IMG/VR virus record: IMGVR_UViG_3300032266_001037
Coordinates: 1-43,341 of that record
DNA from: a virus
Taxonomy: Duplodnaviria; Caudoviricetes
Direction: 5' to 3' (one strand)
Length of the DNA: 43,341 nucleotides
Shown here piece after piece: positions 4,854 to 43,341 of this stretch (its first letter is position 1; each line of letters starts with the position of its first letter). The notes beneath the pieces are model-generated. The model saw nothing but the letters and a program-made list of their open reading frames with translations, was not told the DNA's origin and made no database searches. A program made the position numbers and the translations under genes.

Positions 4854-6727
4854 TAGTGTACCTCTAACCAATTGTATCCTACTCCAGGAGTTCCACATAC
4901 AGGAATGTATGGGAGCATGTCCATGTTGTTAAACGCTGTCGTAATGACCATTAAAGCCTTGTCTAGGTTCTCCTCTGGCACTTCATACAATAACTCATCA
5001 TGCACTTGAATGATTAACTTGCAATCTAGGTCTTTAAGACCTCTCTTGCAAACCAACATAAGTATTTTGGCAATATCTGCTTCCGTGCCTTGTATGACTG
5101 CATTAAATGCCTGACGTTCACCTCTGGCAAGGTACTTGAATACCTCTCGACGGGTAACAACCTCTCCAGTAGGTAGTTCTTGATTTTCCCGTGCCCCTTT
5201 ATCAAGGGTAAATGTGGGATAAATTAATCGTCTACCGTAAAGTGTGTACCCTAGTCCATCATTTTTATAGAATCCATCAATCACCCCGCGCTTATATTGA
5301 TTGAACGACGGATTCTTCTGTTCAACTTTGTCTAGTATAGAACGACCAACACTGTCTTCTACCCCTAACTTTGCCACGAATGCTCGGAAACCTAGACCGA
5401 ATATTCTACCGAACGTAACGGTTTTAGATTCCGACCTACTGATGCCCATTATCTTAGACATAACACCGTGGTAATCCCCCTCTGGTAATTCGGGGTTGTG
5501 ATAGAAAATCTTAAGCATCTGTACCACATCATCAGGCAAGTACCCACACTCTTCATCGAAATACTGTGCCATCAGCGCAGCCAGTACCCGGAGTTGAATG
5601 TTCGCCAAATCAACTCCTACGAATATGTTACCTGGCTCAGGAACAATGAACTTACGGAAGGTTGCGCCTAGTTCATTCCTTTTGGGTAGTACCTGGAGAG
5701 AGGGATTCTTAGACGATATCCTTCCCGTTATTAATTCCTGTCTCCAAGACGCGCGGACTCTACCATCTGCACATACTTTTTCCTGGAATGGTTTGATGTA
5801 GGTTCCCGTTAATTTGGTGAGTTTTTTGTACTCTAGCAAGATGTCTGTCAGTTCGCAGTTGTAACACTCTAGATTTTCCGCTTGGGTATTATCTAACTCT
5901 ATATCGTACATCTCCTTATACGCAATCTTCAGGTGAGTCCCAGAGTTAGGATTAAACTCTCCATCCTTAACGAATACCCATTTACCCTGTTTATTTTGCT
6001 CTGGTAGATACGCCCCATCCGCGCGTTCCTTTTGGGTTTTGTGGTACAGCTTATCCCCAGGAAACTTAACACCTTCCACTAAATTACACAACTGCTTTTG
6101 AAGGGAATCAACCACTGGCTGTATCTCGTTCTCCCATGACTTGAGTTTAGTCTGGTCAACATACACCCCAGTACTATTCAATTCCATTACGACTTCAATG
6201 AATGGTAAGTCAACGTTTACATAATACTCCCACGCGCGCTCGTCATCCTGTAGCTGAGACAGAACTATACTTAAAACCTTCCATGTCAACTCCGCGTCAC
6301 GTCTGGCATAAGGCACCATTTCATCCGACCAGGTTTCAAAGGTCGGGGATTTAAGCTTAGGTAACCCTAATCTCTCCCCCCAAGCATTAAGGGAATATCT
6401 TTCACCGCGGTATTCTCTCATGTTGGGATTAAGGTCATACCCCATTATCATCGTGCAATGATAATGAGGTATTGATAACCCTAATGACCTCAGAACCGCT
6501 ACATCAAACGCGGCATTGTGGAACACAGGAACTCTATCTAAAATGATTGACTCCCATGTACTTTTTATTACCTCTATCGGAGTTACATCTGGTCTCCAAC
6601 GTAACTTTAATACATCACAATCCGAACCTGTAGACCATGATAAACAATATACCTCCTGTAGTTCTCCGAACGAACCTCCACCGCGCGTCTCTAAATCTAT
6701 GACTATCAACTCATCCAAGGTAATCAT
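4853..6727 (-). CDS. polA: Family A DNA polymerase with 3'-5' exonuclease
   Basis: ExoI DLET, ExoII FHNAAFD, ExoIII YARRD; TGRISS.NPSLQ; motif A DLANIQLR, motif B KTVTFGRIFG, motif C QVHDE. Probable ATG at 6727. Confidence 0.97.
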   Translation of the reverse strand: MITLDELIVIDLETRGGGSFGELQEVYCLSWSTGSDCDVLKLRWRPDVTPIEVIKSTWESIILDRVPVFHNAAFDVAVLRSLGLSIPHYHCTMIMGYDLNPNMREYRGERYSLNAWGERLGLPKLKSPTFETWSDEMVPYARRDAELTWKVLSIVLSQLQDDERAWEYYVNVDLPFIEVVMELNSTGVYVDQTKLKSWENEIQPVVDSLQKQLCNLVEGVKFPGDKLYHKTQKERADGAYLPEQNKQGKWVFVKDGEFNPNSGTHLKIAYKEMYDIELDNTQAENLECYNCELTDILLEYKKLTKLTGTYIKPFQEKVCADGRVRASWRQELITGRISSKNPSLQVLPKRNELGATFRKFIVPEPGNIFVGVDLANIQLRVLAALMAQYFDEECGYLPDDVVQMLKIFYHNPELPEGDYHGVMSKIMGISRSESKTVTFGRIFGLGFRAFVAKLGVEDSVGRSILDKVEQKNPSFNQYKRGVIDGFYKNDGLGYTLYGRRLIYPTFTLDKGARENQELPTGEVVTRREVFKYLARGERQAFNAVIQGTEADIAKILMLVCKRGLKDLDCKLIIQVHDELLYEVPEENLDKALMVITTAFNNMDMLPYIPVCGTPGVGYNWLEVH

Positions 6728-7092: not shown

Positions 7093-7200
7093 TTAAAACG
7101 ACACGTCCGAAGCGGACGATGTCCACACCTATACTCTGGTCTAATATTAAAACGACACGTCCGAAGCGGACGATGTCCACACCTAGATTCTGGTCTAGTA
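7093..7200. repeat. Tandem duplication of a 54-bp unit, each copy containing a GC hairpin
   Basis: TTAAAACGACACGTCCGAAGCGGACGATGTCCACACCTA.A.TCTGGTCTA.TA at 7093 and 7147; hairpin CGTCCG-AAG-CGGACG in each. Confidence 0.95.
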
Positions 7201-7788
7201 TTAAAACTCATCATCGAATTCCTCGTCAACCCAGTCATCAAACGAAACGTGCTCATAGGTATCTATAGGGATGTCGGTTAACCATTCATTTGGAATAGAT
7301 GGACTCATACTTTCTGGGGTTATCAAAGGTGCCCATTTAATGCCCAGATTCGTTGCCCACTCTCCATAATTCATTTTACGGTTAGGAACTTTCAGCTTGT
7401 AATTCTGAAAGACTATCCGATAATTTGAGAATTGTACTGGATGCTGATGGCGAAAAGTTTTTACGAGTGTGGGGAATTTGTTCTCCATCATTCCCTTTAC
7501 CTCTATCAAAATTCCGTTTAGTGTCTGGAAGTCTGGCATCCACTGATACAACCGCATCGTCCTCAGTGCCAGTAGCATCTCTTCCGTTAGTACCTTTCCC
7601 CCCACCTTCACTGGGTTTATCACATTCGTACTGTACGATTTTCTGGGGAGGTATAGATTGAACCTGGTCTTGTTCCGTTGAATCAACGGATAGTACCTCT
7701 CCATTAGACTCCGTTCTATCCCTGAATCGTAGCGTATCTTCTGACCATCTATTGTCAGATAACCCTTGTGGGCATTCTTGCCTACCAT
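7201..7788 (-). CDS. T7 endonuclease I-like Holliday junction resolvase
   Basis: YDSGIE, then PDF...ILIEVKG (PD-(D/E)xK), and YGEWA..LGIKWA, matching the gp3 pattern; GAGGTG upstream. Confidence 0.85.
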   Translation of the reverse strand: MVGKNAHKGYLTIDGQKIRYDSGIERSLMERYYPLIQRNKTRFNLYLPRKSYSTNVINPVKVGGKVLTEEMLLALRTMRLYQWMPDFQTLNGILIEVKGMMENKFPTLVKTFRHQHPVQFSNYRIVFQNYKLKVPNRKMNYGEWATNLGIKWAPLITPESMSPSIPNEWLTDIPIDTYEHVSFDDWVDEEFDDEF

Positions 7789-10742: not shown

Positions 10743-11798
10743 TTATCCCTCAACAATTCTTGGTTTTCTAGAAATACGGACGGAGCTATTCCTCTGAGAT
10801 TTTGGTCTATTTGGTTTCTCTGGTTCTATTTTAACACGTCCAGAACCTTTTACACGGGTTGTTTCTTCGATTGCAGAGAACTCCTTGGGAAGAACAAAAC
10901 TCCCATTGTCTATTGCAATCCGAAATAATACAGAACATGCTCCTCCCATTGAATTTGTGGCGCGTGAGAAGTTTGTCACTCCTGTATTCTGCACTGCTTT
11001 GTGAGACTCAGGAATGTGTTCTACACAAAACAGGATAGCAGATTCTAGGAACTGTTCTGACTTTATCAAATACTTGAAGTCAGACCTATAGCCCTTCATG
11101 TCGTTGAAAAATGCAACACAGTAAGCGCCAATTGTCTCGTCCGATAATCCCTTGTGGTCTAGTTGTTTATCTTTCACTAGTGCCACGGATATCATCCTAA
11201 GCGCGTCCGATAGTTGTTTGCTCTGTGACCCAGACAATCCTCCCATGAAATACTGGGTAATCAATTCTGATGGGGATTCTACATTCACACCTTCGGAACT
11301 GTGTTTTATGCTTGCACCTTCTATCGCCGTGCAGCCACGGGATTTGTTGGACAGAATAATCCTCACTGGATTACTTTTAAGCACGAAACAGGGTAATACG
11401 AATTTGTCTACAAAATCCTCCAGACCCAAATGGGTGAGGATGAATAGAATCGCAGCTATCCGATGTCTACCAGACTCCAGAATCATAGGGTCTGTCCCTA
11501 CTACAATCGGATTGATGAGTGGATTCTTGAATAATAAACCAAACTCACCATACAGCACGGTAAGTACTTTTGCTTCCATGATGGGGCGTTGGACGACTGA
11601 GTCTTCTATGCTCATAAGGGTCTTCAGGGATATGAACTTCACGCTATCCCCCTCTATTCCTTCGATTACAGTGTCCTGCACGAACTGTAATAGCTCAGGA
11701 GACCCTAGATTGAACGCTCCTCTATAGGACTCCAACATCCTGTATATCTTCTGAGTTTGGCTGTCTTGCAGTTCTCTAATGACATAATCGGTTTTCAT
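10743..11798 (-). CDS. Protein with an N-terminal ParB/sulfiredoxin-like domain
   Basis: INPIVV...ILESGRHRIAA matches the ParB-N PIxV...GxHR pattern; basic C-terminal tail; AGGTGG SD before ATG 11798. Confidence 0.6.
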   Translation of the reverse strand: MKTDYVIRELQDSQTQKIYRMLESYRGAFNLGSPELLQFVQDTVIEGIEGDSVKFISLKTLMSIEDSVVQRPIMEAKVLTVLYGEFGLLFKNPLINPIVVGTDPMILESGRHRIAAILFILTHLGLEDFVDKFVLPCFVLKSNPVRIILSNKSRGCTAIEGASIKHSSEGVNVESPSELITQYFMGGLSGSQSKQLSDALRMISVALVKDKQLDHKGLSDETIGAYCVAFFNDMKGYRSDFKYLIKSEQFLESAILFCVEHIPESHKAVQNTGVTNFSRATNSMGGACSVLFRIAIDNGSFVLPKEFSAIEETTRVKGSGRVKIEPEKPNRPKSQRNSSVRISRKPRIVEG

Positions 11799-11940
11799 GT
11801 GATATACCACCTATAAATCTTTTTTGGCAACCTAGGATACTTTGGACACTTTAACAAAATACCCACAATCAATTCTGCGGGGTCTAGAAGGCTCAGGAAG
11901 GTCGGTCTAGGGGGGAGCCTTTACGATGTATCCTGAAGGA

Positions 11941-11970: not shown

Positions 11971-12047
11971 CGCATGTAACCCATATTGATAACACGTAGA
12001 TAAGCGCGAGTGTTAAGGGATACCATAAATATTTCTTGGTGTACTGA

Positions 12048-12077
12048 TTGACAAAATCAGGGTAGTATCTGTATAAT
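12048..12077 (+). promoter_or_regulatory. Consensus sigma70 promoter, module copy A
   Basis: TTGACA-N18-TATAAT. Confidence 0.85.
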
Positions 12078-12083
12078 CTAATT

Positions 12084-12171
12084 AGCCGCCGAAGGGTTTG
12101 ATATATAAGAAGAGCAGAAGTAAAACGAAACCTGTAAAACGTGAAAACACGAAATACAGGTTTCATTTTTT
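12084..12171 (+). ncRNA. Putative ~90-nt small RNA, copy A
   Basis: Runs from the consensus promoter to the hairpin GAAACCTGTA...TACAGGTTTC-ATTTTTT; no ORF; shares GCCGAAGGGTTT and GTAAAACGTGAAA with copy B. Confidence 0.55.
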
Positions 12172-12198
12172 ATGACAACCCATAGGATGAAGGTTTAC

Positions 12199-12240
12199 AA
12201 GATATAGATTCCAAGCGAATAGCGTAGGAATCTATATCTT
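12199..12240. repeat. 14-bp-stem hairpin with conserved loop, copy A
   Basis: AAGATATAGATTCC-AAGCGAATAGCGTA-GGAATCTATATCTT; inverted paralogue at 21609-21652. Confidence 0.9.
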
Positions 12241-12262
12241 TCTTGGTATGAGATTTAGTCAA

Positions 12263-12914
12263 AGGGTTATAGGACATACGAGTTTGGATAGGTGTTATAG
12301 TGCGTAAGCCCTATATCCATATCTGGAGGATTGTACTCTAGGGATTACCCTGTAACCATATGGATTTATATCTAATACCCCATATATAATATATATATAT
12401 ATAATATATATAATAAATGATTGGATATAGGGTTATTCGACTAGAATAACCCTATATTCAATCGTATGTCTAAGGGTCATAGGGTTATAGGACATACGAG
12501 TTTGGATAGGTGTTAGGTGTTTCAGTCTAGGTGTTAGAGTCTACCCTATAACCCTGTAACCCCTATAGATTCTATGACCCAGTAACGATTAGACTCTATG
12601 ACCCAGTTACTACGCGCTTAAATAACCCTTATTGTGTAAGCCCTACATGGAGTCTAAGGTGTTTGTACTCTAGGGATTACCCTGTAACCAGTAGACCCAA
12701 TCACCCAGTAATTACGCGCTTAGATAACCCTTATTGTGTAAGCCCTAGACTGTATCCTATAACCCTATTCTCTAGGGATTACCCTGTAACCATATGGATT
12801 CTAGATTATATTAGATACCAATACCCCATATATAATATATATAATATATATAATATATATAATATAATCTATTGGATATAGGGTTATTCGACTAGAATAA
12901 CCCTATATCCAATC
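12263..12914. repeat. Origin-like repeat field: iterons, TA tracts and long palindromes
   Basis: 35-mer at 12263 and 12481; TCTAGGGATTACCCTGTAACCA at 12337, 12669 and 12771; ~45-mer at 12601 and 12703; TA-rich tract plus 19-bp-stem palindrome ATTGGATATAGGGTTATTC-GACTA-GAATAACCCTATAT(T/C)CAAT at ~12420 and 12871. Confidence 0.9.
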
Positions 12915-12950
12915 TTCTATCTAAGAGTGATATATCTACTCAGATATTCC

Positions 12951-15389: not shown

Positions 15390-15545
15390 GGAAGGGAACC
15401 CGTCCGCTGGACGTTTGGGTTGATTGGTACCGTATGAAGAGGTTCGTTTACTGCTCTTCATCTCTTGGTGCCTAGGCTCTTGAGCGCTCATCCTGCCCCG
15501 GTATGTTAGTGACTTCCGGTTGTCTGTTTGGTTCTCTTCCCCTCA
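15390..15545 (-). ncRNA. Structured 5' leader RNA of the early operon
   Basis: Closing stem GGGAAGaGAACC / GGTTCcCTTCCC enclosing hairpins ATGAAGAG/CTCTTCAT, CGTCC/GGACG and CCGG/CCGG. Confidence 0.45.
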
Positions 15546-15552
15546 TGCCTAT

Positions 15553-15581
15553 AATATAACAAGCCAGGATGGAAGTGTCAA
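15553..15581 (-). promoter_or_regulatory. Strong sigma70 early promoter
   Basis: TTGACA-N17-TATATT with an extended -10 TG. Confidence 0.85.
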
Positions 15582-16355
15582 TCCCCTATAAAAACGCCTG
15601 TAATGCAATGGTGGTAAGGGTTCCAGCCATTTCAACTTTCATTGATAAGAAACGCTGATGGAAAATTCGTAATTTTTGTGATTGTGGATTTTGGGCTTAT
15701 GGATACGTGTAAATAATAGATTTGAGGGTACCAAAGATTGAAGTTTTTGTCAAATATTCATTCCTTATGGTACAGTCGCTCCCCGATACAGATTCCTTAT
15801 ATGACAAGGGTTTTGGGCGTTTTAGTTAACAATATCTTATGGGAATCCTGAATACGAGAAGTTAAACTTATCTGATTTGAAATTGAAATGGAAAACCCAA
15901 TCTTTCATAGGAATTAGTAATAATATTAGTTAGTGCAGTGGATTTTAACAGTAACCATCAGAAAGATTAATCATATAAATAACATTAATAGGCGCGCGCG
16001 GAGACCTGTGATTTTGCTGATATAAGATATCTATTATTGTCTGGCGATCGAATATAGGGTTATCTATTAGATAATTAGAACATTATATTTTGACGAGATA
16101 GATTTGAATGTTTTATATCAGTAATCCTTATTTGTCTGGCGGTATAATTTTGAATGTTTTATGCGCGCGCATCCGTCAAAATGTTTGATAAGAATAAGTG
16201 ATAGTACAAGTGTTCGATCGCCACATATTCTGATATATGGATTGCTTATATCAGAAATTGTGATATATGGATTGCTTATGGGCAAATGGGGGGTATAAGA
16301 AAAACTTATACCCTCTATCATCACCATAAGTTTTTTGGATGAGTGGGTACCCAAT

Positions 16356-16405
16356 AAAAAAAAAACGCAGAGGATTCTACGTCGCTTGCAGAGTAGAATC
16401 CTCTA
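16356..16405 (-). terminator. Terminator of the parM-dcd operon
   Basis: 12-bp stem AGAGGATTCTAC / GTAGAATCCTCT followed by a T10 run on the minus strand. Confidence 0.75.
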
Positions 16406-16476
16406 TTTATTGCCAACCCCTATAAAGGGTTTGTGGGAGAGAACAAGGTTATAAGAAACAAACTCCCACAAACACC

Positions 16477-16530
16477 ACAATCACGACAATCACGACAATC
16501 ACGACAATCACGACAATCACGACAATCACG
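16477..16530. repeat. (ACAATCACG)6 tandem 9-mer
   Basis: Six perfect copies; the last overlaps the dcd stop codon. Confidence 0.97.
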
Positions 16531-17092
16531 CGCGCGCGGTTATGACTTCGTGCGGTTGATTCTGATACTTACCTCCTCTTGTGTCATAGTCCACAGAACA
16601 CACATTGCCCTCAAAAAACAGTGCTTGGACAATCCCCTCATCCGCGTATATTTTGATAGGAGAAGACGCGCTATTAAACAGTTCTAATGTGAGATGACCT
16701 TTCCATCCTGCCTCACCAGGAGTCGTATTCACTATCAATCCACAGCGCGCGTAAGTAGACTTTCCAATGAACAATGCGGTGATGTCAGAAGGTATCCTCA
16801 ATAGCTCCTTTATGACCCCTAGCGCGTAGGTTTGAGGGGGAATGATATAGTATATACCCGTGTCATCAACGTGCGGATACTGGACGTACAATTGGGTTTG
16901 AGCGTCAAAATGTTTGGGGTCAATAGTAGACGCGGTATTCTTGAATATCTTCAAGGGTACATCAGAAGATAAACGTAAATCGTACCCAAAAGAAGACTGA
17001 CCATAACTAATAGCACCGTTCCTAACCAGAGTAGATTCATAAGGTTCAATCATCCCAACTCTACTAGAGATTTCTTTGTCATTCAATAGCAT
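16526..17092 (-). CDS. dcd: dCTP deaminase
   Basis: ISYGQSSFGYDLRL, GKSTYARCG, PGEAGWKGHLTLE, GKYQNQ; probable start MLLNDKEI. Confidence 0.96.
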   Translation of the reverse strand: MLLNDKEISSRVGMIEPYESTLVRNGAISYGQSSFGYDLRLSSDVPLKIFKNTASTIDPKHFDAQTQLYVQYPHVDDTGIYYIIPPQTYALGVIKELLRIPSDITALFIGKSTYARCGLIVNTTPGEAGWKGHLTLELFNSASSPIKIYADEGIVQALFFEGNVCSVDYDTRGGKYQNQPHEVITARA

Positions 17093-17276
17093 CACATTCA
17101 CTTCCGTAGTAAAGGTCATCCATGAGTACTTGATACGCGCGCGTGTAGGTCTCAATTTCTGATGCAATTACAACCCCATAGGGGTTAACCACTTCAAATT
17201 GAACAACCCCTTCAACCATGTTCCGTATAGTGTAACCGCTAGTCTTCTTCATCGTAATCATAGTCGTCATCATCAC
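17079..17276 (-). CDS. Small hypothetical protein
   Basis: Fills the gap between the T5orf172 gene and dcd; start uncertain. Confidence 0.4.
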   Translation of the reverse strand: MMMTTMITMKKTSGYTIRNMVEGVVQFEVVNPYGVVIASEIETYTRAYQVLMDDLYYGSECDAIE

Positions 17277-17691
17277 ATTCCTCTACTTCTGCACTGTTGA
17301 AAAAGTCATACATTCCATTGAATACTAATCTAAGCGCGTCTACTTGTTCCATTGTGAATTGGAACCATTCCATCGTGTATTGCCGACCATAGCCAAAACC
17401 CTTAGAGATTTGTGGATTATTGGAGCAGTGGGAGAATACCTGATGGAGCGCGCGTTCTATTTTGTGAGCAACCTCTGCATTATTGAACCAAAAGATGTAA
17501 TAGACCCCAAGAGTGGAGTCACCATTGGGGGATAGGGAATTGTGCCGTCTTAGCTTTTTCATCCGTTGCTCTATGTTTGTCGTAATGCCGATTTTGTATC
17601 GGTCATACAAGACACTGTATAGGAGATATAGGGCACACATTCCTGTATCAGGTTTTGGACATGTTTTTTGCGCGTCTGATGGTCTCAACAT
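17239..17691 (-). CDS. T5orf172/GIY-YIG-like nuclease domain protein
   Basis: YLL...YKIGIT.NIEQRMKKL...IERALH..F...EWF. Confidence 0.85.
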   Translation of the reverse strand: MLRPSDAQKTCPKPDTGMCALYLLYSVLYDRYKIGITTNIEQRMKKLRRHNSLSPNGDSTLGVYYIFWFNNAEVAHKIERALHQVFSHCSNNPQISKGFGYGRQYTMEWFQFTMEQVDALRLVFNGMYDFFNSAEVEECDDDDYDYDEED

Positions 17692-17693
17692 GG

Positions 17694-18782
17694 CTATTTC
17701 TTCTTACCAATAGGTTTGTTTAATGGAACAACTGAAGGTGTTTCTGGGGTGACGTAGCCAATACCACGCTCCTTTTTAATGCGACGGTAGGTAGACATAT
17801 CTGGCAGTAGCATAATCGCATTGTCTACAACACACGCTCGATAAGGGTTACGTTCAGATAGGACATTGAAATAATTTACGGTGCCTGGTGGTACACGTTG
17901 TGCGTTTTCTAAGGACTGTAGGTGCTTGACTGCCAATTCACCCTTTAGAACCATCGTCATATTCGCACGTAGGTCTGACTCGCCTTCCATTCCCAAGGTT
18001 TTGACCAAATAGTTGACTCCGGTCAGAATGATATTTAGGTTTTGTTTCCGTCCAATGGACAGTACATCTCCCACTACAGGAGTAACCTCTGTTTTCTTCG
18101 CCGTCCATCGATACTCATCACAAACAATGACTAATGGTTCATGGTAATCGGGGTTAGAGTAGCGCTCCAACAAGGATGCGTTCACATATTCAGAGAATGA
18201 ATTCATGGATTCCGCATCAAAATTGTTCCCTACCACTTCCCAACCCAAGAATTCCTTATCCTCTACTTCCACAGTAGGAGATAAGTAGACTTGACGTGTA
18301 TCTGCCCCTAGGACGCGCGCGCGTAAATCACCTATGACCTCAGCAACGAGGGTTTTACCTGTACCCGTAGGACTAAATACCCCAAAGTGAGGCTTTACTT
18401 TGGGTTGATTGATGTAATTTTTTACGAAATCATCCCAAGATAGGATTTTAAGCCCATCAGGGACACTGATTTTGTCTTGATTATTGATTGGGAGTGGTTC
18501 TAATGGTGTGTCATCCTTATGCTCCCACGCTTGTTGCACGTCTATCTGGTCATTGAGGTCAGTAATTGCCTGAATCTTACGTCTTAGATGGGTGGATTCT
18601 TTGTCTAGAAGACCTACCACACCAAATGTAAGGGACGCGCCTACTAACCCTGTGATTAATCGGTTGAGTTTACTGTTAGTTGTAGTCGTTAGATAGAAAA
18701 TGGTGTACGAACACGCTAGTGCAAGTACACCACAACCAATCATCGTATTAATGGAACGTTGGCGCTCCTCTAATAGGGTCAC
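17694..18782 (-). CDS. Membrane-anchored FtsK/HerA-superfamily P-loop ATPase
   Basis: Two N-terminal hydrophobic segments; Walker A SPTGTGKT, Walker B IVCDE, arginine-finger motif GRKQNLNIILTG. Confidence 0.8.
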   Translation of the reverse strand: MTLLEERQRSINTMIGCGVLALACSYTIFYLTTTTNSKLNRLITGLVGASLTFGVVGLLDKESTHLRRKIQAITDLNDQIDVQQAWEHKDDTPLEPLPINNQDKISVPDGLKILSWDDFVKNYINQPKVKPHFGVFSPTGTGKTLVAEVIGDLRARVLGADTRQVYLSPTVEVEDKEFLGWEVVGNNFDAESMNSFSEYVNASLLERYSNPDYHEPLVIVCDEYRWTAKKTEVTPVVGDVLSIGRKQNLNIILTGVNYLVKTLGMEGESDLRANMTMVLKGELAVKHLQSLENAQRVPPGTVNYFNVLSERNPYRACVVDNAIMLLPDMSTYRRIKKERGIGYVTPETPSVVPLNKPIGKKK

Positions 18783-19204
18783 AGCAGACCTCCCATAGTC
18801 ATAATCGACAGCTTAAGTAAGGTAGAGAAGGTAATCTCTCTGTCGCAAAACCCGATGTAGGCAACACAACCAATCACAAGCGCGATGATGGTAGATGGAA
18901 TTGCGATATACCACCCCATGATGGGTTGTAACAACCAAAGACTGTATTTAATGGTCTGTCCGATAAATAACCACCCAGGCAAGCGCGCCACCCCCAATAG
19001 AGTATGGGGAAATGACATGATTTGTCGGAGGTTGTAGAAGGACTGTTTGGAATTGTCTACCCGTGTACCCCAAACCGCGTAGGATTTCCATCCATCTTGT
19101 AGTTGAGGTTGATTGAATTGCCCTGTATCCCTATCAATCTGTTTAGTAGGGTCAAAACCTATCGCGTTGATTAGACCCCCTCCATCCGGCTTACTAGATG
19201 CCAT
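18779..19204 (-). CDS. Membrane protein (2-3 TM)
   Basis: Hydrophobic C-terminal half; stop overlaps the ATPase start. Confidence 0.7.
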   Translation of the reverse strand: MASSKPDGGGLINAIGFDPTKQIDRDTGQFNQPQLQDGWKSYAVWGTRVDNSKQSFYNLRQIMSFPHTLLGVARLPGWLFIGQTIKYSLWLLQPIMGWYIAIPSTIIALVIGCVAYIGFCDREITFSTLLKLSIMTMGGLL

Positions 19205-19376
19205 AGTCGATTCTCTCTTTTAACAATCCAATAATGAAATGTCTTTGTGAGTAGTAAGCTGCGTTCAATAAGTGCGCTAACTCTCTCAGTTGTTCTGTGG
19301 TCATCTTATCAATCTGAGTGTCTGTGTTTGCCTTTTGGAACGCAAGCTCTAAAGGCAACTCCGCGCTACTGTCCAT
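19194..19376 (-). CDS. nblA: NblA-like phycobilisome degradation protein
   Basis: 60 aa; ELPLELAF....DTQIDKMTTEQLREL matches the NblA pattern LSLEQQF....xxQVxxMSxEQA; AGGAG SD. Confidence 0.75.
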   Translation of the reverse strand: MDSSAELPLELAFQKANTDTQIDKMTTEQLRELAHLLNAAYYSQRHFIIGLLKERIDYGI

Positions 19377-19641
19377 CACAATTACTCCTGGTGGTACGGT
19401 GGAACCATCCAAAACCCTCTTCCTGTTGAATACATCCCAATGAACCGCGCTCGGTGGTAGAGGTTTGTTGGGTCAGTTGGAGCATCCTCATGTTGTTGTT
19501 TAGCTCTTGGATATCACGGGATATAGAGGATTGATTGTAGAGAACAAAACAACCCAGTAACCCGAACGCAAAGGGGGATATTGCTAACCACATAACGAGT
19601 AGCTTCATGGTGTAGTCCCATTCGGAATTAGAATTCATCAT
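19366..19641 (-). CDS. Single-TM protein with a coiled coil
   Basis: Hydrophobic segment followed by a heptad-like region. Confidence 0.6.
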   Translation of the reverse strand: MMNSNSEWDYTMKLLVMWLAISPFAFGLLGCFVLYNQSSISRDIQELNNNMRMLQLTQQTSTTERGSLGCIQQEEGFGWFHRTTRSNCDGQ

Positions 19642-19984
19642 AGTCTACAGGCTCCCTAATATTTTCAAGTGCAAAAAGCGCGCGGCAAATCAGGTGGGTT
19701 AGATGTGACTCTAGACTCTCGTAATCCCGTGCAGTGATAGATGGAATGGTAGCAATCGCGTGTTCGACAAGATGTAAAAGATGGTCTTCTACAGAGATGT
19801 TTCTGTAGCTGTCGGAACCGTACTTATCGCTACCTTCCTGTAGAACTTCTAGAACAAATGCCATTGTAGTCCAATTGATGAGCGACCAGTCTCTCTTTAA
19901 CTTAGAGCCATCAGGTGTAGTGGACACAAAATCATCATCGTTATGATGTTTCCAATCGGGGTCAAATTTAATCGAATAAGTCAT
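19628..19984 (-). CDS. dATP/dGTP diphosphohydrolase N-terminal domain (DUF5664) protein
   Basis: K.DWSLI...VL.EG.DKYG..SY...HL..H....ESHL.H..CR pattern. Confidence 0.75.
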   Translation of the reverse strand: MTYSIKFDPDWKHHNDDDFVSTTPDGSKLKRDWSLINWTTMAFVLEVLQEGSDKYGSDSYRNISVEDHLLHLVEHAIATIPSITARDYESLESHLTHLICRALFALENIREPVDYDEF

Positions 19985-20198
19985 TTCTGCTTAACTCCTG
20001 TAGAAGGTCATTCGTATGTCTAACGGTTTGCTGTGGCGGGATTGTGTGAGATAGAGTACTGGTTGGTTCAGATGACATGAAGTTACAGACCAGGGATTCC
20101 AAGAGCGCTTGCGGAGGAATCCCTATGTCGAACGCTCTATCTAGGAACTTGCGCCACAACTTCGGATTAATTCTTACTCTGTTGTCTGTGGAACGCAT
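19968..20198 (-). CDS. Ribbon-helix-helix-like DNA-binding protein (ParR-like adaptor)
   Basis: RVRINPKLWRKF...A...GIPPQALLESLV fits an RHH; immediately downstream of, and overlapping, parM. Confidence 0.6.
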   Translation of the reverse strand: MRSTDNRVRINPKLWRKFLDRAFDIGIPPQALLESLVCNFMSSEPTSTLSHTIPPQQTVRHTNDLLQELSRNDLFD

Positions 20199-21147
20199 CG
20201 TAAATCCCTTTGACATTATCTGATAGAGGATTAGGGGATAGTAGGAACATCTTACCTACTCCTGGTTTGTTCATGACCGCTTTGATGCAAGGTGCAACGG
20301 TGAACGCGCCTCCACCAGTCACTAAGAAGTTTGTTACTTCCCTGTTCTGAATCGCCTGTCGGTAGTCATTAAGCACCAAGTTCTGGAATATGTTTTTCCA
20401 GAATAGGGGTGTGTAGTAGTCGATGTACTTCTGGATGGATTCCCCAGTGTGACCAATCCTATAGGTCTGATTCTCTAAGCAATTGAAGAATGACTCCACA
20501 CTCACCATGATTCCGTTGTTTAGGTTGGTCACTTCATTATCGTGCTTAATGAGGTTCGCCAAATAAATCATCCCTTGCTTTGGATAGGTAGATGAGCGCA
20601 TCACCTCTCCAGAACTATTCTCAATCAGTGTGGTCACAACCGTACCGCCACCAATATCGATAACCACAGTGTAGCCTATATCAGAAATTGAACCAGAATT
20701 ACGTGCGAGGTACCATGAACCAAAACCCTCTTGGTAAACCCCTACCACTTTTAAGCGCGTCTCAAATAGGTGCCTGTCCTTCTCCCAAACATAGATATTA
20801 TTTAGCGCTTTGACTAGGTCATGTTGGTAGGAGGTCACTAACTCTGGGACTTGAATCACTATCTCTGTCGTTGGTTCCACCGTACCAAAGTCACTTAAGG
20901 CTGATAGGAGCAAGATGATTGACTCTGATATAGACGCGGTCTTGTCTGACTCCGACTGTAAGCGCACCATGTCATATTTAAGCGCGCCCACTCCTGTGTG
21001 ATAGATGAGGTCATTGATAACAATTACCCCAGGTGTTCGGAGTAGATTGTATCGACCATTCACAGACGCGATAACTGACTTGATAGATTTAATGGAGTGA
21101 CCATTGTAACCTACCGTTGAAGAGTTACCAATATCAAATGCGTACAT
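20167..21147 (-). CDS. parM: ParM/StbA-family actin-like ATPase
   Basis: Phosphate-1 FDIGNSST, connect-1 QEG, phosphate-2 IDIGGGT, adenosine LVTGGGA. Confidence 0.92.
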   Translation of the reverse strand: MYAFDIGNSSTVGYNGHSIKSIKSVIASVNGRYNLLRTPGVIVINDLIYHTGVGALKYDMVRLQSESDKTASISESIILLLSALSDFGTVEPTTEIVIQVPELVTSYQHDLVKALNNIYVWEKDRHLFETRLKVVGVYQEGFGSWYLARNSGSISDIGYTVVIDIGGGTVVTTLIENSSGEVMRSSTYPKQGMIYLANLIKHDNEVTNLNNGIMVSVESFFNCLENQTYRIGHTGESIQKYIDYYTPLFWKNIFQNLVLNDYRQAIQNREVTNFLVTGGGAFTVAPCIKAVMNKPGVGKMFLLSPNPLSDNVKGIYDAFHRQQSKN

Positions 21148-21365
21148 TAGTATTTCTCCACATGAACGAGTTTGAGTAATTCGTTTAAGGGCAGTCCCGA
21201 TAGGACTTTAGACAACTCCAACTGACTGTATAGGTAAGGAGCAGTCTGAGACACCTTGTTAGAGACCGCACGTCCCACTATATCTTCTAATTCTTTGATG
21301 GGCACTACCACATCTATCTCTAGGTGAATGGTTCCACTGTGTTCAGTAAGCACTATCTTGGACAT
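21147..21365 (-). CDS. Hypothetical protein, first gene of the parM operon
   Basis: GGAG SD; TAATG coupling to parM. Confidence 0.6.
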   Translation of the reverse strand: MSKIVLTEHSGTIHLEIDVVVPIKELEDIVGRAVSNKVSQTAPYLYSQLELSKVLSGLPLNELLKLVHVEKY

Positions 21366-21608
21366 GAGGTTCTCCATAATTGGGATATCTATATGATAAC
21401 AGTCATTGGGACAAATTATCCATATCTATAGGATTGTTTACGTTATCAATAAGGAGTGCCTTATTGGCAATAGCATGCTCCGGGTTATGAGGGTAATCCC
21501 CAGGAAACAAACATCTTTGTATGGATGTGGGGCTTACACTCACAGGGTTATTCTCTACTCGTCGTATAAAACACTAAGAAGGTATTTTTCTAGATGTATG
21601 AATAAGAG

Positions 21609-21652
21609 ATAAATATAGATTCCTACGCTGTTCGCTTGGAATCTATATTTAT
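21609..21652. repeat. 15-bp-stem hairpin with conserved loop, copy B
   Basis: Minus strand ATAAATATAGATTCC-AAGCGAACAGCGTA-GGAATCTATATTTAT. Confidence 0.9.
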
Positions 21653-21682
21653 GCATTTATCCTCTTGTATGTTTCTACGTAC

Positions 21683-21778
21683 AAAAATACCCCCACATAA
21701 TTTGATTACATGGGGGTAAATTGCATTTCACGTTTTACTACTTTCATTTCCACATACTATTAAACCCTTCGGCACCTT
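21683..21778 (-). ncRNA. Putative ~95-nt small RNA, copy B
   Basis: Runs from the promoter at 21785-21814 to the terminator UACCCCCAUGUAAU-CAA-AUUAUGUGGGGGUA-UUUUU (fully paired with G-U only on the minus strand). Confidence 0.55.
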
Positions 21779-21784
21779 AATTTG

Positions 21785-21814
21785 ATTATACAGATAATAC
21801 CCCATTTTTGTCAA
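21785..21814 (-). promoter_or_regulatory. Consensus sigma70 promoter, module copy B
   Basis: TTGACA-N18-TATAAT; near-identical context to 12048-12077. Confidence 0.85.
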
Positions 21815-21919
21815 TCAGTACTCAAAAATATTTTCTAGGTATCAGTAGTCACCTATCCACAATAGCTATAATTATAGTGTAATCTACCATAATTATCTAT
21901 CCCTATGAGCGTCTAATTC

Positions 21920-22252
21920 ATGGCAAACAATGAAAACCTAGAAGATAACAACGTACATATCGTGAAAGTAGAACAATCAACCTTACTGGGGAAACCATTA
22001 CTAGACTGGGGAATCACGTTAACGATTATTGGGTTATGCGTTGGGATTATCTCTCAAGTGATTAGGGTTTACGAGAGGCTGACGATTATGGAAGAGAGAA
22101 CCAACATTATTTTTCAAGCGTACTCAGTTGACCAGACCAGCCAGAATAACGACATTAATTTTGTACGAACCAGACAGGAAGTAGTCCTCCAACGGCTCAA
22201 CACTCTTGAGCAACGAATGGATAGGGCAGAACAATCAATTAATCTAAAGTGA
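21920..22252 (+). CDS. Single-TM coiled-coil protein (holin-like candidate)
   Basis: Hydrophobic WGITLTIIGLCVGIISQVI followed by heptads; first late gene. Confidence 0.5.
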   Translation: MANNENLEDNNVHIVKVEQSTLLGKPLLDWGITLTIIGLCVGIISQVIRVYERLTIMEERTNIIFQAYSVDQTSQNNDINFVRTRQEVVLQRLNTLEQRMDRAEQSINLK

Positions 22253-28290: not shown

Positions 28291-28877
28291 ATTTAGTTTT
28301 GGGGACGTTAAACTTCTACTGAATAACTGGAAAATGCTATGATGCACAACCAGAGGGAACACGAAAAAACCAAAACACGTAGTTCGGGTAATAACCTATG
28401 AAACGTTTATCTTGGAAGTATATCGCAGGTTTGATAGATGGCGAAGGTTGCTTGGATGTAATCGTATCTAAGGATAGATACATCCGTCCTAGAGTAAGAG
28501 TATGTCTAACAGAATCTAGTAAGTTTTTACTAGATATGTTATATGAAAACTTTGGTGGCGGTTTATACTATCGCCAAGGTGGTGCAACCTGGAATGGAAG
28601 TTATAGTTGGGAACTGTCAGGGTATAAACCCGTATGTATGTTCCTACGAAACATCCAAAATCACTGTTATATCAAACAGGAACAAGTCAGATTTCTGCTA
28701 TGGTCAGAAACAAACATAAAGGGTAAATGGCTTGACGTAATTGTCAGAGATACCTTTATAGATGAACTTAAAGCGATGAAACGTGACCCGCACAGACTAA
28801 GTGTAGAAGCGGTTGCCAATGTGATTAAAGCAATGGAAAACCGAAGCGATAGTCGGATATCCAATGATGGATAGTTG
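28291..28877 (+). ncRNA. Group I self-splicing intron, 587 nt
   Basis: P1 GUCCCU/GGGGAC with U-G at the 5' splice site; P3 CTTCTAC(28313)/GTAGAAG(28803); P4 CTGG/CCAG; P6 GGGAACACG/CGTGACCC; P7 GACTA(28795)/TAGTC(28850); P9 TATCCA/TGGATA; terminal omega-G at 28877. Confidence 0.93.
28398..28874 (+). CDS. Intron-encoded single-motif LAGLIDADG homing endonuclease
   Basis: YIAGLIDGEGC at the N-terminus, then L.ENFGG and IKQEQ (I-CreI-like layout); 158 aa. Confidence 0.93.
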   Translation: MKRLSWKYIAGLIDGEGCLDVIVSKDRYIRPRVRVCLTESSKFLLDMLYENFGGGLYYRQGGATWNGSYSWELSGYKPVCMFLRNIQNHCYIKQEQVRFLLWSETNIKGKWLDVIVRDTFIDELKAMKRDPHRLSVEAVANVIKAMENRSDSRISNDG

Positions 28878-29798
28878 GAAATTTGGTCAACGGAAATTAT
28901 GCGATATCGCCAAGAAGATTTGGTGTTCGCAAAATACGTCAAGAAAATTCCATTCGTGGGTAAATCTGGAGATTTACTCAGGCTACCTAGAATTTCTCGT
29001 TTAGGGGTTAAGAGCAAGGCAGCAAAATCACCCATAGAATATCAAAGCGTAACCGACACCCAATGGTCTATTACCATCGACCTTTATAAGTATGCGGCTA
29101 CGATGGTAGAGGATGTCGTAGAGATTCAGTCTCATACCTCTCTTCTATCCGAGTACACCAAAGAGTTATCGGCTGCACTCGCACGTGACCTAGACCTAGC
29201 ATTACAGGCGGAACGCGCGGCAATTATTGGTGCAGATTCTACTCACCATGTGACCTCAACGGCACCTATTTCACGCGCGGAAATCTTAGCGGCAATTGAA
29301 ATCTTAGACCGTGAGCGTGTTCCACAAGAAGGACGTACACTTATTGTTAGTCCTGCCCACTATGCCTCACTACTGGCTATTGACTCGTTTGTCAGCCATG
29401 TTTATGTAGATAACAGCCCTGTAGTTTCGGGTCAGATTGGTACATTGTATGGAATCCCAGTTGTCGTCTCTAATTACCTTGGAATTAATAGCGCTACTGG
29501 TTTATACAATGGGGATAATGACCCTGCACCTAGCCCAACCCCAGGTATGTCTGGTTCCTTGTATTACCCCACGCAGGAAGATGGAACAGTAACCGCGTTA
29601 ACGGCTAACTATTATTCGTCTATCCTCCTACATCGGGATGCAATCTGCCTTGCTATGCAGAAAATGCCTAGTGTGCAAAGTGAGTACGACCTAGACTATT
29701 TGGCATCCAAAGTAGTCGCATCTCAACTCTACGGGATTAAACTGTATCGTCCTTCGCACGCTGTAGTGATTTCGTCGGACGAGGACGGACTTATCTAG
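28878..29798 (+). CDS. Major capsid protein, exon 2 (spliced product 324 aa)
   Basis: EIWS...GDLLRLP...ITID..KY...VP.EGR.LIVSP..Y..LL...GQIG.LYGIPV..SN...LYG.K.YRP, a podovirus HK97-fold pattern. Confidence 0.93.
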   Translation, partial: EIWSTEIMRYRQEDLVFAKYVKKIPFVGKSGDLLRLPRISRLGVKSKAAKSPIEYQSVTDTQWSITIDLYKYAATMVEDVVEIQSHTSLLSEYTKELSAALARDLDLALQAERAAIIGADSTHHVTSTAPISRAEILAAIEILDRERVPQEGRTLIVSPAHYASLLAIDSFVSHVYVDNSPVVSGQIGTLYGIPVVVSNYLGINSATGLYNGDNDPAPSPTPGMSGSLYYPTQEDGTVTALTANYYSSILLHRDAICLAMQKMPSVQSEYDLDYLASKVVASQLYGIKLYRPSHAVVISSDEDGLI

Positions 29799-41900: not shown

Positions 41901-42346
41901 GGAGAGACTATGGTTTTGATAGTATCTACGATGCACATCGGGGAATTACAGTAGGTCTTCCCCATCCCGTATCCGGTAGGGTGAGGGGAGTTACACTATC
42001 CGATGCTCCCGTTGGTGCAGTAGACAGAACACAATCGATTAGAAATAGGCAAGCGCTAATGGCACACCTATCTAAAGGCTTCTCCAGTGAACCACCGTCT
42101 GTCTATCAACATATTCGAGATATGGAAGTGCAAACCCGTCGAAGATTACTTAACTCCATTGCACAAGAAAACGTAGATGAATTGAACCGCGCGAATAAAC
42201 GGTTTAAGCCGAATGTCCCATTAACCACAGACATAGATAATAGTGAACGAGTTGTAGCCAATATTATCAATGACCCTGTTCCTTTTAGGGACAGCACTGA
42301 GTTTGAACAAATTTCTGAATTACCAATTGATTGGGAATGTATGTAA
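38984..42346 (+). CDS. Large internal virion protein with two winged-helix-like repeats and an ADP-ribosyltransferase-like domain
   Basis: YYHGT...YGVGLYLSDD...GFDSI; duplicated I.xLQEQ.P....EL...L..LE.DR.I.F..S.EGKP. Confidence 0.7.
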   Translation: MDNIVTDTNDQLTLSEDRPNITKGQLEAPSQSPNIVGLPGELSRLSTESTSPQNTQIELPSSSSPFIPSTTGIPPWLIGNPNVNPVPLDIPNYSLRALQQITNPSEIPPQPETTRILPPLYATPSTQPASNSHVSDTMRLYTEDITRRRAFMNRQGLAGLVDRRPLYDSQSNSIPNAPISESVPRSLDNAAQGLYRTLNQRHEIPDRGILGNIAEQTGDLLNLAGAIVQDTWENTLSLSPLTGQNYTRTQNAGMNFLEDFVSPTDENGNESFDITRGYFGSQGRGALGAANYVLSMPQNIVMASIYSTADLAQTLASGLTYTNGNLGYDMTNVHSPASSNELFHRYSQVFGGEDLSFTNMRVAGDDNYMALIPQDAPREQQLLWGAAGFILDVLTGGIVDSGVDAFTSIVRPTVQGLRQGMNVPEAISYGQRIARTAREEVARQVIPSFGTSSPTRPESAVSASRLANITPDEFARELSNEPLAPVPLPEFYQRSNTELQRAADYLGIPDMPPINTPDDLYQYQLNHGATFYRYGVPVDVDLDMAVFDNNPITQTPHGLNEDTGVIDASIMPSDVQLDMDAFNDSPFAAINAVSRSTPPTQSLNQTIIGLVQDAKEPLNIATLQEQLPETSTRELLDALAHLERDRLITFGVSAEGKPSTILLAPPSTSSDLILDFLRNQEQPDTALLGRVPPTISDIQEQYPNIRSDELYNTLNQLEQDRQIMFTPSTEGKPALVSIVPEIQRFVEEAQGIRELEHSVIGLRNQIDATLLESDNVLPIGNIADEINTRAAYNETTPGTQIKPITQLVEQSDTPINKEQYYYHGTRQQGEILGTIDYREGGAHEYGVGLYLSDDPHQATTAANAARLPNNPIPGTTRLSEDGTGRLLQLSIENARTFEINEPINPDIYEEFTHTIENLMGSNVADEYYRITNRNSDSRSLWLSARVAYRNVNGKNIPELMYHNFSVSMAHTLRRDYGFDSIYDAHRGITVGLPHPVSGRVRGVTLSDAPVGAVDRTQSIRNRQALMAHLSKGFSSEPPSVYQHIRDMEVQTRRRLLNSIAQENVDELNRANKRFKPNVPLTTDIDNSERVVANIINDPVPFRDSTEFEQISELPIDWECM

Positions 42347-43341
42347 TGACAAATCTATCTAAGATACTCAAGTGTAATATCCCTGAATTGAATGAGGATA
42401 ACCTTAACTCACTAGATATTACTTCCAATGAAACACCTACAGAGATAGAAGCGCGCGTCCTTCGACTGCAAGGAATCCTACAGAACGTATCAGTAGGACA
42501 GTCTCTAGGTAGAGAGTTATCGGTAAAGAACATTGAGGCAATCAATACCCAAAACATGATACGTGCTGGTAACACGGTACAATCCTCTGTCCTTAAACCT
42601 GGGAATGGGCGCGCGTTCTCAGATGTACTTGCACGGGATATGGCAATTGTCCAAACCTGGTTAGGAAATGGGGATGAATATACACAAGCGGGTTGGGTGA
42701 GAGAATCTCTTAATCGAGTTCAGCGTCTTTATCGTGGAGGTCTAAATGATGCGTTCCGTCGATACGGATTCTCTAGACACGTTGATGAGCTATACCGTGA
42801 CACTGTAGCCATGCTCAGAGGTAAAGGTCTGAGACAGTCCCAGATAGATATCATCACCTCTAATAGCTTGGAGAAGGGATTCTATAACACTATCCGTCAA
42901 TCCCAATACATTGCCCCTAGAGGCACGGCAATGATGGAGCAGGAATATAAAAGATTCCTGAATTCGTTGACGAGTACTTATGGTCTTACACCCCAAGAGG
43001 CACAGACTGTAATGCGCTCAGGAGAAATGGCAGCGAACGCATATAACCAACTCTCCTCTGTCGCACTAGATGCAGGACTAAGCGCGAATAGACCTTGGGA
43101 TAAAGTACCTTTTGGGCTTACCCCCAGCGTAAACCTTAGATTCAATTGGTTGTATGAGGATGAAAATACTATTCGTTGGAACACGGGCGCGTCTAGTCGG
43201 ACTGTAGATGCGTTTATTGCATCTAAGATTTCACCCCAACATATTGTTGAGGATGAAGTTCTGATGGATACAGTCATCCGCGCGCTAGGACAAGACAGTC
43301 ATAGTGACCCGCTGTATCACTACCGACAGGCTGTACCTGGG
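42346..43341 (+). CDS. N-terminal part of a large virion protein, 3'-truncated (missing from the ORF track)
   Basis: ATG overlaps the previous TAA; frame MTNLSKILKCNIPE... stays open for 332 codons to the window end. Confidence 0.8.
   Translation, partial: MTNLSKILKCNIPELNEDNLNSLDITSNETPTEIEARVLRLQGILQNVSVGQSLGRELSVKNIEAINTQNMIRAGNTVQSSVLKPGNGRAFSDVLARDMAIVQTWLGNGDEYTQAGWVRESLNRVQRLYRGGLNDAFRRYGFSRHVDELYRDTVAMLRGKGLRQSQIDIITSNSLEKGFYNTIRQSQYIAPRGTAMMEQEYKRFLNSLTSTYGLTPQEAQTVMRSGEMAANAYNQLSSVALDAGLSANRPWDKVPFGLTPSVNLRFNWLYEDENTIRWNTGASSRTVDAFIASKISPQHIVEDEVLMDTVIRALGQDSHSDPLYHYRQAVPG

Follow-up and report, generated by a model that had tools for sequence, protein, structure and literature searches.

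An operon of the 43,341-base IMG/VR virus record IMGVR_UViG_3300032266_001037, the whole of which was analysed and is referred to below as the window, brings together an actin-like ParM, a ParR-like adaptor and a membrane ATPase whose predicted structure places it in the FtsK/HerA superfamily. To judge from its core genes, the carrier is a Saffermanviridae-like podophage, and a cyanobacterial plasmid is the likely source from which it took up the ParM-ParR pair and the ATPase jointly. Pairs of a phage actin and its adaptor are already known, and so are FtsK-like transfer motors. Literature searches, with most subscription journals outside their coverage, returned no title describing either this plasmid ATPase family or a ParM in a Saffermanviridae phage, and within this scope the union of ParM-ParR with an FtsK-type motor in such a phage appears to be undescribed, as does the plasmid ATPase family itself. 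It is tentatively proposed that the module maintains phage genomes that are not integrated into the host chromosome, and several other roles are weighed against this one.

ParM and its ParR-like partner

The 326-residue product of the gene at 20167..21147 (-) matches PHROG 691, annotated as a partition protein (E 3.5e-19). Its AlphaFold2 (AF2) model has a pLDDT (predicted local distance difference test) of 88.7, and the best Foldseek match of this model is the ParM of pCBH (E 1e-15, template modelling (TM) score 0.70); identity to solved ParMs is 13-20%. The phosphate-1, phosphate-2, connect and adenosine motifs of an actin-fold ATPase are all found in the protein, and the ParM motifs are kept by all 7 relatives in the alignment. 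Six metagenomic relatives with 43-46% identity, one of which sits on a 42.4-kb contig, keep the nucleotide-binding motifs and form a clade with the phage ParM (support 100/100) in a tree that was built without CorM itself and in which the flagged long-branch joins lie away from this clade. Thus, both the conserved motifs and the ParM fold of the model bear out the initial annotation, which had described a ParM with all of its motifs. When a profile of the phage clade was scored against the ParMs compared, the ParM of plasmid pMIC7113.05 came out on top (105 bits). A seven-row ParM profile gave nothing significant among PDB sequences, tblastn found no ParM relatives in 50,697 INPHARED phage records or in PLSDB, and no close-clade relatives of either ParM or the ATPase were found in IMG/VR or the JGI metagenomes.

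The gene directly behind parM, at 19968..20216 (-), encodes 82 residues (76 from the second Met) and is predicted to be a ribbon-helix-helix (RHH) adaptor. Against a profile of 23 genes that lie directly behind cyanobacterial-type parM genes it ranked first among the 220 open reading frames (ORFs) of the window, and none of 500 shuffles scored as high, in agreement with the earlier suggestion of a ParR-like protein. There is no Pfam match; in the ESM Atlas the protein reaches 0.94 to small phage/cyanobacterial clusters, in one of which 10% of the members are ParG. As in the ParMRC systems of R1, pCBH and pSK41, the phage ParM has the actin fold and its motifs, and the small RHH-type gene behind it ends in a short acidic-hydrophobic C-terminus. 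Unlike in those systems, the operon has no adjacent parC-like array and its carrier is a podophage.

A related parM-parR pair, distinct from CorMR and highly conserved, lies among housekeeping genes in five cyanobacterial genomes (L036 and L072-L075; one 5.5-Mb contig). This pair is possibly a second domesticated ParMR.

A membrane-anchored ATPase of the FtsK/HerA superfamily

The last of the overlapping genes, at 17694..18782 (-), encodes a 362-residue protein built of two hydrophobic N-terminal helices, a linker of about 25 residues and a RecA-like domain (AF2 pLDDT 90.5). When the model was compared with 48,161 solved chains (VIA), TcpA was the best match (Z 16.0, root-mean-square deviation 4.1, 203 residues aligned), with EccC at 15.1 tied within 1, followed by FtsK (13.8), HerA (12.4), VirB4 (12.0) and TrwB (11.2, deviation 3.9, 213 aligned), the last standing below TcpA, EccC and FtsK. 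Foldseek concurs on TcpA and FtsK. A profile of 115 family members has FtsK as its best single-domain PDB match (E 3e-15); its matches to midasin, dynein and ABC proteins were rejected as sums of weak Walker A matches, and a five-row profile found nothing significant among PDB sequences.

Profile searching collected 377 proteins at E <=0.001, and the alignment comprises 115 of the family (112 of the 150 listed and three others). In all 115 the Walker A residues G142 and K143 and the arginine R245 are invariant, and the Walker B Asp is present in 113 (D222/E223 in the window). In the FtsK/HerA superfamily the arginine finger stands before the strand that follows Walker B. Catalytic residues are also kept in relatives at 39-46% identity. 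The window ATPase groups in a clade of nine members with support of 100. Judging by the model, the protein is a membrane-anchored member of the FtsK/HerA superfamily, and it would form a ring-shaped motor in which Arg245 acts in trans. The initial annotation, which had read this gene as a P-loop ATPase with two transmembrane segments and an arginine finger, is upheld on each of these features, and the fold check that it recommended scores TcpA, EccC and FtsK higher than TrwB.

TcpA of the Clostridium plasmid pCW3 and the FtsK motor share with the window ATPase a transmembrane anchor and a RecA-like domain. Unlike with these proteins, however, identity is only 10-14%, and Pfam and PHROG scans recognised no relaxase, conjugation or type IV secretion genes in the window. 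TcpA is the coupling protein of a relaxase-based system. FtsK has an alpha domain between its transmembrane segments and its motor, for which the short linker of the window ATPase leaves no space.

A plasmid family and probable joint capture

The ATPase family was matched in 12 of 72,556 plasmid records (11 plasmids, pDU1 being present twice), all of them cyanobacterial and all typed as non-mobilizable, in keeping with a relaxase-independent motor. These plasmids, which include pDU1, pCC7120zeta, pMIC7113.05, pMIC7113.06 and pANN4383.01, come from filamentous genera. The ATPases of the five named plasmids share about 22-27% identity with that of the window, are annotated as hypothetical or ATP-binding and have a longer C-terminus. 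Genome surveys extend the distribution: the family was found in 26 of 401 sampled cyanobacterial genomes (positives of 4.1-8.5 Mb), a lower bound given that five candidates were scored per genome, and a motif scan found it on 13 genome contigs, 10 of which are titled cyanobacteria and 3 of which belong to other phyla. Four other viral contigs carry a family ATPase, and tblastn found no relatives in the INPHARED phages.

Of 50 distinct family loci, 10 were seen to carry a ParM gene, in each case on the same strand and upstream, at a distance of 0.6-4.1 kb; for the 38 loci with at least 5 kb of upstream sequence the figure is 9. The profile used for this count was built from those loci and may overlook distant ParMs. 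The ATPase has a hydrophobic neighbour gene at 34 of 49 loci, the cut being passed by 12% of background ORFs in a loose comparison that allowed several ORFs per locus. On pMIC7113.05 and pMIC7113.06 the order is the same as in the phage, namely ParM-ParR, small genes, membrane genes and the ATPase, and their ATPases belong to the group that is sister to the wider clade of the window (FastTree support 97). Moreover, the phage ParM and the phage ATPase both have pMIC7113.05 proteins among their nearest named relatives. Because both proteins point to the same kind of plasmid, their sequences favour joint capture from a cyanobacterial plasmid as the likely origin. The plasmid-like origin suggested earlier is therefore supported by the shared gene order. 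The proposed co-occurrence of the cassette is seen on cyanobacterial plasmids; neither gene is present in TR020, Pf-WMP3, CHP58 or A-4L, the four genomes searched, from which the window phage differs in having both.

Two short contigs touch on the range of the module. On a 6.1-kb contig binned as Chloroflexi (L021), genes for ParM, an RHH ParR, a membrane protein and a family ATPase stand closely one after another, so the module may not be confined to cyanobacteria. The gene set of a 5.7-kb contig binned as Patescibacteria (L020) resembles that of pDU1, and this contig is probably a cyanobacterial plasmid placed in the wrong bin.

Organisation of the operon

Eight minus-strand ORFs running from 21377 to 17694 overlap or abut one another, with gaps of -1, -50, -17, -14, -47, -11 and -4 bases, so that the coupled operon described in the initial annotation, with ParM, an overlapping RHH gene, two membrane proteins and the ATPase, is present in full. 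The first gene (21147..21377, -) encodes 76 residues and belongs to no family found by Pfam, PHROG or further family searches. ParM and the ParR-like gene follow, and the fourth gene (19628..19984, -) encodes a 118-residue dATP/dGTP diphosphohydrolase (PF18909, E 3.2e-11, above the cut-off). Homologues of this enzyme occur in A-4L and Pf-WMP3, and by sequence it is a native phage nucleotide gene sitting within the operon.

The fifth gene (19366..19641, -) encodes a predicted single-pass membrane protein of 91 residues (hydropathy peak 2.13 at residue 15; no family), and the seventh (18779..19204, -), which overlaps the start of the ATPase gene, a membrane protein of 141 residues with a hydrophobic C-terminal half (peak 2.21). 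Neither has a Pfam or PHROG match, and one weak NCBIfam match is unrelated. Homology of the 141-residue protein to hydrophobic genes adjoining other family ATPases was considered and rejected: against a profile of 11 positional analogues it scored 2.8 bits, and 103 of 500 block shuffles did as well. Its resemblance to those genes is an analogy of place and hydropathy.

Between the two membrane genes lies a gene for 60 residues (19194..19376, -; 72 residues from an upstream TTG at 19412) whose likeness to NblA is suggestive. The Pfam NblA family (PF04485) is matched at E 0.066 and 14.1 bits, below the cut-off of 25; hhalign gives a weak match of 74% probability over 35 columns, reached by 5 of 1000 shuffles; and the best named ESM Atlas cluster is NblA at 0.79, which is a lead. 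NblA genes are known in viruses (PMC12695635). In an unrelated phage of 43 kb (L010), a similar small NblA-like gene is likewise accompanied, in matching order, by genes for a membrane protein and a family ATPase; its membrane gene gave no match to the 141-residue protein. A viral contig with a family ATPase (L025) has a clear NblA match (25 bits) at 5030-5227 (-), about 4.5 kb off and on the opposite strand.

The minus-strand run continues past the ATPase. A GIY-YIG (T5orf172) nuclease of 150 residues (17239..17691, -; PF10544, E 2.5e-12) begins 2 bases behind it, and a dCTP deaminase (16526..17167, -; PF22769, E 3e-25; 41% to phage CHP58), 71 bases further on, is the last gene of the run. 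A GIY-YIG gene also comes after the family ATPase on the Nostoc plasmid pn2. Six to seven tandem 9-base repeats at 16459-16530 lie directly behind the deaminase gene, at one end of a non-coding stretch of 1 kb (15500-16500). From its gene content, then, the operon is not a pure partition/transfer cassette and appears to mix plasmid-type genes with lytic helper genes. The term plasmid-like cassette used in the initial annotation fits the partition and ATPase genes; it does not fit the interleaved diphosphohydrolase and NblA-like genes or the nuclease and deaminase genes that follow.

A chimeric assembly is unlikely, because read depth is even (7.6-10) across the operon and its flanks in the likely source run, one 3351-base contig of that run (18502-21852) covers the promoter, ParM and the start of the ATPase, and base composition is like that of the rest of the genome (GC content and GC content at third codon positions, GC3, of 0.44/0.42 for the ATPase and 0.43/0.44 for the polymerase; GC3 of 0.51 for ParM).

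Promoter and repeat regions

A sigma-70-type promoter match of 12/12 with an 18-base spacer (21785..21814, -) points into the operon. It is the only perfect one among 11 sites in 16000-22000, and sites with at least 9/12 are not enriched there (11 vs 15.5 in shuffles). In Pf-WMP3, A-4L and TR020 the early arm begins where the two arms diverge, and the equivalent point in the window is 21378-21920. Since synteny places the start of the early arm here, the operon would be the first to enter the cell and, by analogy with these phages, may be expressed early from a host-type promoter. Synteny puts the virion ends at 21853-21902; none of the contigs listed for one sequencing run (X1) covers this interval, a gap that was given no weight.

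The non-coding region at 12019..12930, 9 kb from the operon, is a candidate origin or centromere with 8-mer repeats, palindromes and AT-rich tracts. It holds 10 of the 17 genome copies of the 8-mer AGGGTTAT, and amid these repeats an AT-rich tract followed by a 45-base palindrome occurs twice (12374-12463 and 12820-12913), 451 bases apart. Such tracts could be origin-, centromere- or operator-like. The stretches 12019-12430 and 21389-21843 are diverged inverted copies of a non-coding block of about 410-460 bases with a shared hairpin, and both copies hold an identical perfect sigma-70-type promoter, at 12048-12077 (+) and 21814-21785 (-), so that the two promoters face one another across the 9-kb early region. 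A 355-residue orphan ORF beside the repeat region (10743-11810, -), which looked ParB/Srx-like by eye, was dropped as a candidate when no family or relative was found, and family searches likewise returned none for a 311-residue ORF.

The phage and its likely host

The record is rated 100% complete and has no end repeats. Pfam and PHROG recognise a family A polymerase, a primase-helicase, the packaging ATPase TerL, a portal, a capsid and tail proteins; TerL is a gene separate from the membrane ATPase, as had been stated. The window TerL is 39.8% identical to that of the Phormidium phage Pf-WMP3, 35.7% to that of TR020 and 34.4% to that of A-4L, and a TerL scan of IMG/VR gave no match. The portal, capsid, polymerase and primase-helicase genes and a two-arm layout are common to the window, the Saffermanviridae (among them Pf-WMP3, PP, LPP-2, A-4L and TR020) and CHP58, with TerL identities of 34-40%; it is on this shared content and layout, rather than on a formal genome-wide classification, that the Saffermanviridae-like assignment is based. 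As the three relatives infect filamentous cyanobacteria, the host is likely among these too, in line with the original expectation. Among the 52 ORFs scanned, Pfam and PHROG recognised no integrase or repressor, in agreement with the earlier reading, and no sequencing run from a host was found to carry the phage DNA, nor was any RNA run among those listed as holding it.

Further features of the record concern other genes. The ends at 42331-43341 and 17-1474 both match one A-4L tail-fibre gene, so the record is cut within a single tail-fibre gene and lacks some of the sequence that would join its two ends. A LAGLIDADG endonuclease at 28398-28874 directly precedes the capsid frame (28875-29798), which lacks an ATG and matches its profile from position 43; a group I intron likely splits the major capsid gene. 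Two tandem 54-base repeats (7093-7200) lie between the primase-helicase/endonuclease and polymerase genes, and the endonuclease-like frame at 7201-7788 overlaps the end of the helicase, as in A-4L.

Possible roles of the module

The reading preferred here, which is plausible and remains tentative, is that ParM-ParR and the FtsK-type ATPase keep non-integrated phage genomes by partition combined with pumping of DNA at the septum. In a growing filament, the phage genomes bound by ParR would be driven apart by filaments of ParM, and the ATPase would move double-stranded phage DNA through the division septum as it closes. The 141- and 91-residue proteins may assist the ATPase in the membrane, and ParR may bind in the repeat region at 12.0-12.9 kb, unless this region is an origin. 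This reading is preferred because it is the simplest carry-over of the plasmid job of the module and because the loss of the ATPase tail fits a motor fed by ParMR. FtsK and TraB use a C-terminal domain to read DNA sites. By alignment, the window ATPase is without the longer C-terminus of most of its relatives, in which, by the architecture of FtsK and TraB, a DNA-recognition-type domain would lie, and because of this loss it may rely on ParMR for DNA delivery and not on site reading of its own.

Several observations weigh against partition and septal pumping. The ATPase tail after Pro327, which in the window has 35 residues of low model confidence, is 33-58 residues long in its nine-member clade vs at least 70 in 92 of the 106 other members. 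FtsK/HerA proteins have a conserved Gln at the end of the strand following Walker B, and the window ATPase has Val256 where 66 of 115 family members have this residue (a Gln is found in one of the nine clade members, one column earlier or later). No parC-like array was found beside the operon, where 21300-21930 holds only two-copy families of 8-16 bases, and family searches of the window ORFs recognised no plasmid replication initiator or repressor. ParM was not seen in the available DNA at 40 of the 50 ATPase-family loci, and phage L010 has no ParM match though the trio of NblA-like, membrane and ATPase genes is present. The closest homologues of ParM and the ATPase are only presumed to be phage-borne and linked, and lytic-type genes (the diphosphohydrolase and NblA-like genes, then those for the nuclease and deaminase) stand in the operon behind a perfect promoter. 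Finally, Shaalan et al., in a 2023 title, reportedly describe integration of relatives, and a plasmid state is thus not required for lysogeny. The earlier suggestion that the phage persists as a partitioned plasmid is, overall, unsupported and not refuted. The missing integrase says little about it, because most Saffermanviridae lysogenise although no integrase can be recognised in them (PMC11812291).

It is less probable, although still a reading to be taken seriously, that the module serves lytic growth in the manner of AlpAC, with ParM filaments carrying ParR-bound genomes to membrane sites, the ATPase and membrane proteins anchoring or clearing replicating DNA, and the nucleotide enzymes and NblA-like phycobilisome adaptor acting alongside. 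Gene coupling suggests co-transcription with the diphosphohydrolase, NblA-like, GIY-YIG and deaminase genes, a perfect host-type promoter lies where Pf-WMP3, A-4L and TR020 start their early arm, and no repressor was found in the window. There is also a precedent: AlpAC is an early, replication-supporting actin/adaptor pair (PMC4446434). Like AlpAC of the Corynebacterium prophage CGP3, the window operon encodes a phage actin-like protein and a co-transcribed adaptor in an early position; unlike AlpAC, which belongs to an integrated prophage of an actinobacterium, it adds a membrane FtsK-type ATPase. Two points argue against a lytic role. The order ParM-ParR, membrane genes, ATPase is found on plasmids, which have no lytic cycle, and this indicates that the module originally served to maintain or spread plasmids; furthermore, the four related phages replicate without the module.

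The passage of DNA between cells without virions, as suggested in the initial annotation, is so far neither supported nor refuted. A wider proposal, that a TraB-like system of filamentous cyanobacteria, working without a relaxase, moves the double-stranded DNA of plasmids such as pDU1 along the filament, and that a podophage lineage captured it with ParMR for virion-free spread, is rather unlikely. More doubtful still is that the ATPase itself spreads phage DNA in the manner of TraB, passing it through mature septa to neighbour cells, or to another filament, in a virion-free infection. The FtsK-like fold and membrane anchor would suit such a motor, and the family resides on plasmids with no recognised relaxase, in filamentous genera, usually next to a hydrophobic gene. 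Likewise, Streptomyces TraB/Spd combines a membrane-anchored FtsK-like ATPase with small adjacent membrane genes, no recognised relaxase and filamentous hosts. Unlike TraB, however, the window ATPase, with its 362 residues, lacks the C-terminal site-reading domain and the usual Gln, and no clt-like repeats are seen. The operon also has no wall hydrolase and is interleaved with lytic helper genes, and the fold does not decide the mechanism, as the top match, TcpA, is the coupling protein of a relaxase system. TraB moves double-stranded DNA alone and binds clt repeats, and spd genes adjoin traB (PMC3218068).

Remodelling of the host is very unlikely, whether by a cytoskeleton of the CorMR type or by a membrane ATPase that closes septal channels or prevents superinfection. 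In cyanobacteria, ParMR has been co-opted to shape the cell (10.1101/2025.06.27.661541; PMC12645912); CorM is among the fold matches of the phage ParM (TM 0.74), and the close ParM relatives include the conserved parM-parR pair of the five cyanobacterial genomes described above. Like CorMR/FcmBC of multicellular cyanobacteria, the phage pair is a ParM-derived actin with an RHH partner. It is, however, distant in sequence: CorM-like proteins score 11-12 bits on the phage-clade profile, lowest but for a few, compared with 105 for the pMIC7113.05 ParM. CorMR is characterised by a disordered N-terminal extension of ParM and an amphipathic N-terminal helix of ParR (10.1101/2025.06.27.661541), and L120-L122 were taken as CorMR by these features, without an annotated record. 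The phage ParM has no such extension, and the N-terminus of its ParR is not amphipathic (moment 0.16-0.33 vs 0.58 for the CorR kind).

The least credible explanation is a plasmid fragment, newly inserted or in decay, that does nothing for the phage, or a chimeric assembly: although the module is absent from four related phage genomes, finds no match in the INPHARED records and has its DNA in one metagenome only, its frames are intact, coupled and interleaved with native phage genes, composition and depth do not set it apart, its promoter region is homologous to a second site in the phage, and ParM and the ATPase each stand in their own well-supported, deeply diverged clade.

Biological significance

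These results mark out an uncharacterised family of FtsK-type membrane ATPases on cyanobacterial plasmids that are classed as non-mobilizable. With pDU1, the source of widely used Anabaena vectors, among its carriers, the job of the ATPase is readily testable with existing plasmids. For the phage, the module offers a possible route by which an integrase-less cyanophage may be maintained extrachromosomally. Should the motor move DNA across septa, plasmids as well as phage could travel along a multicellular filament without conjugation or virions.

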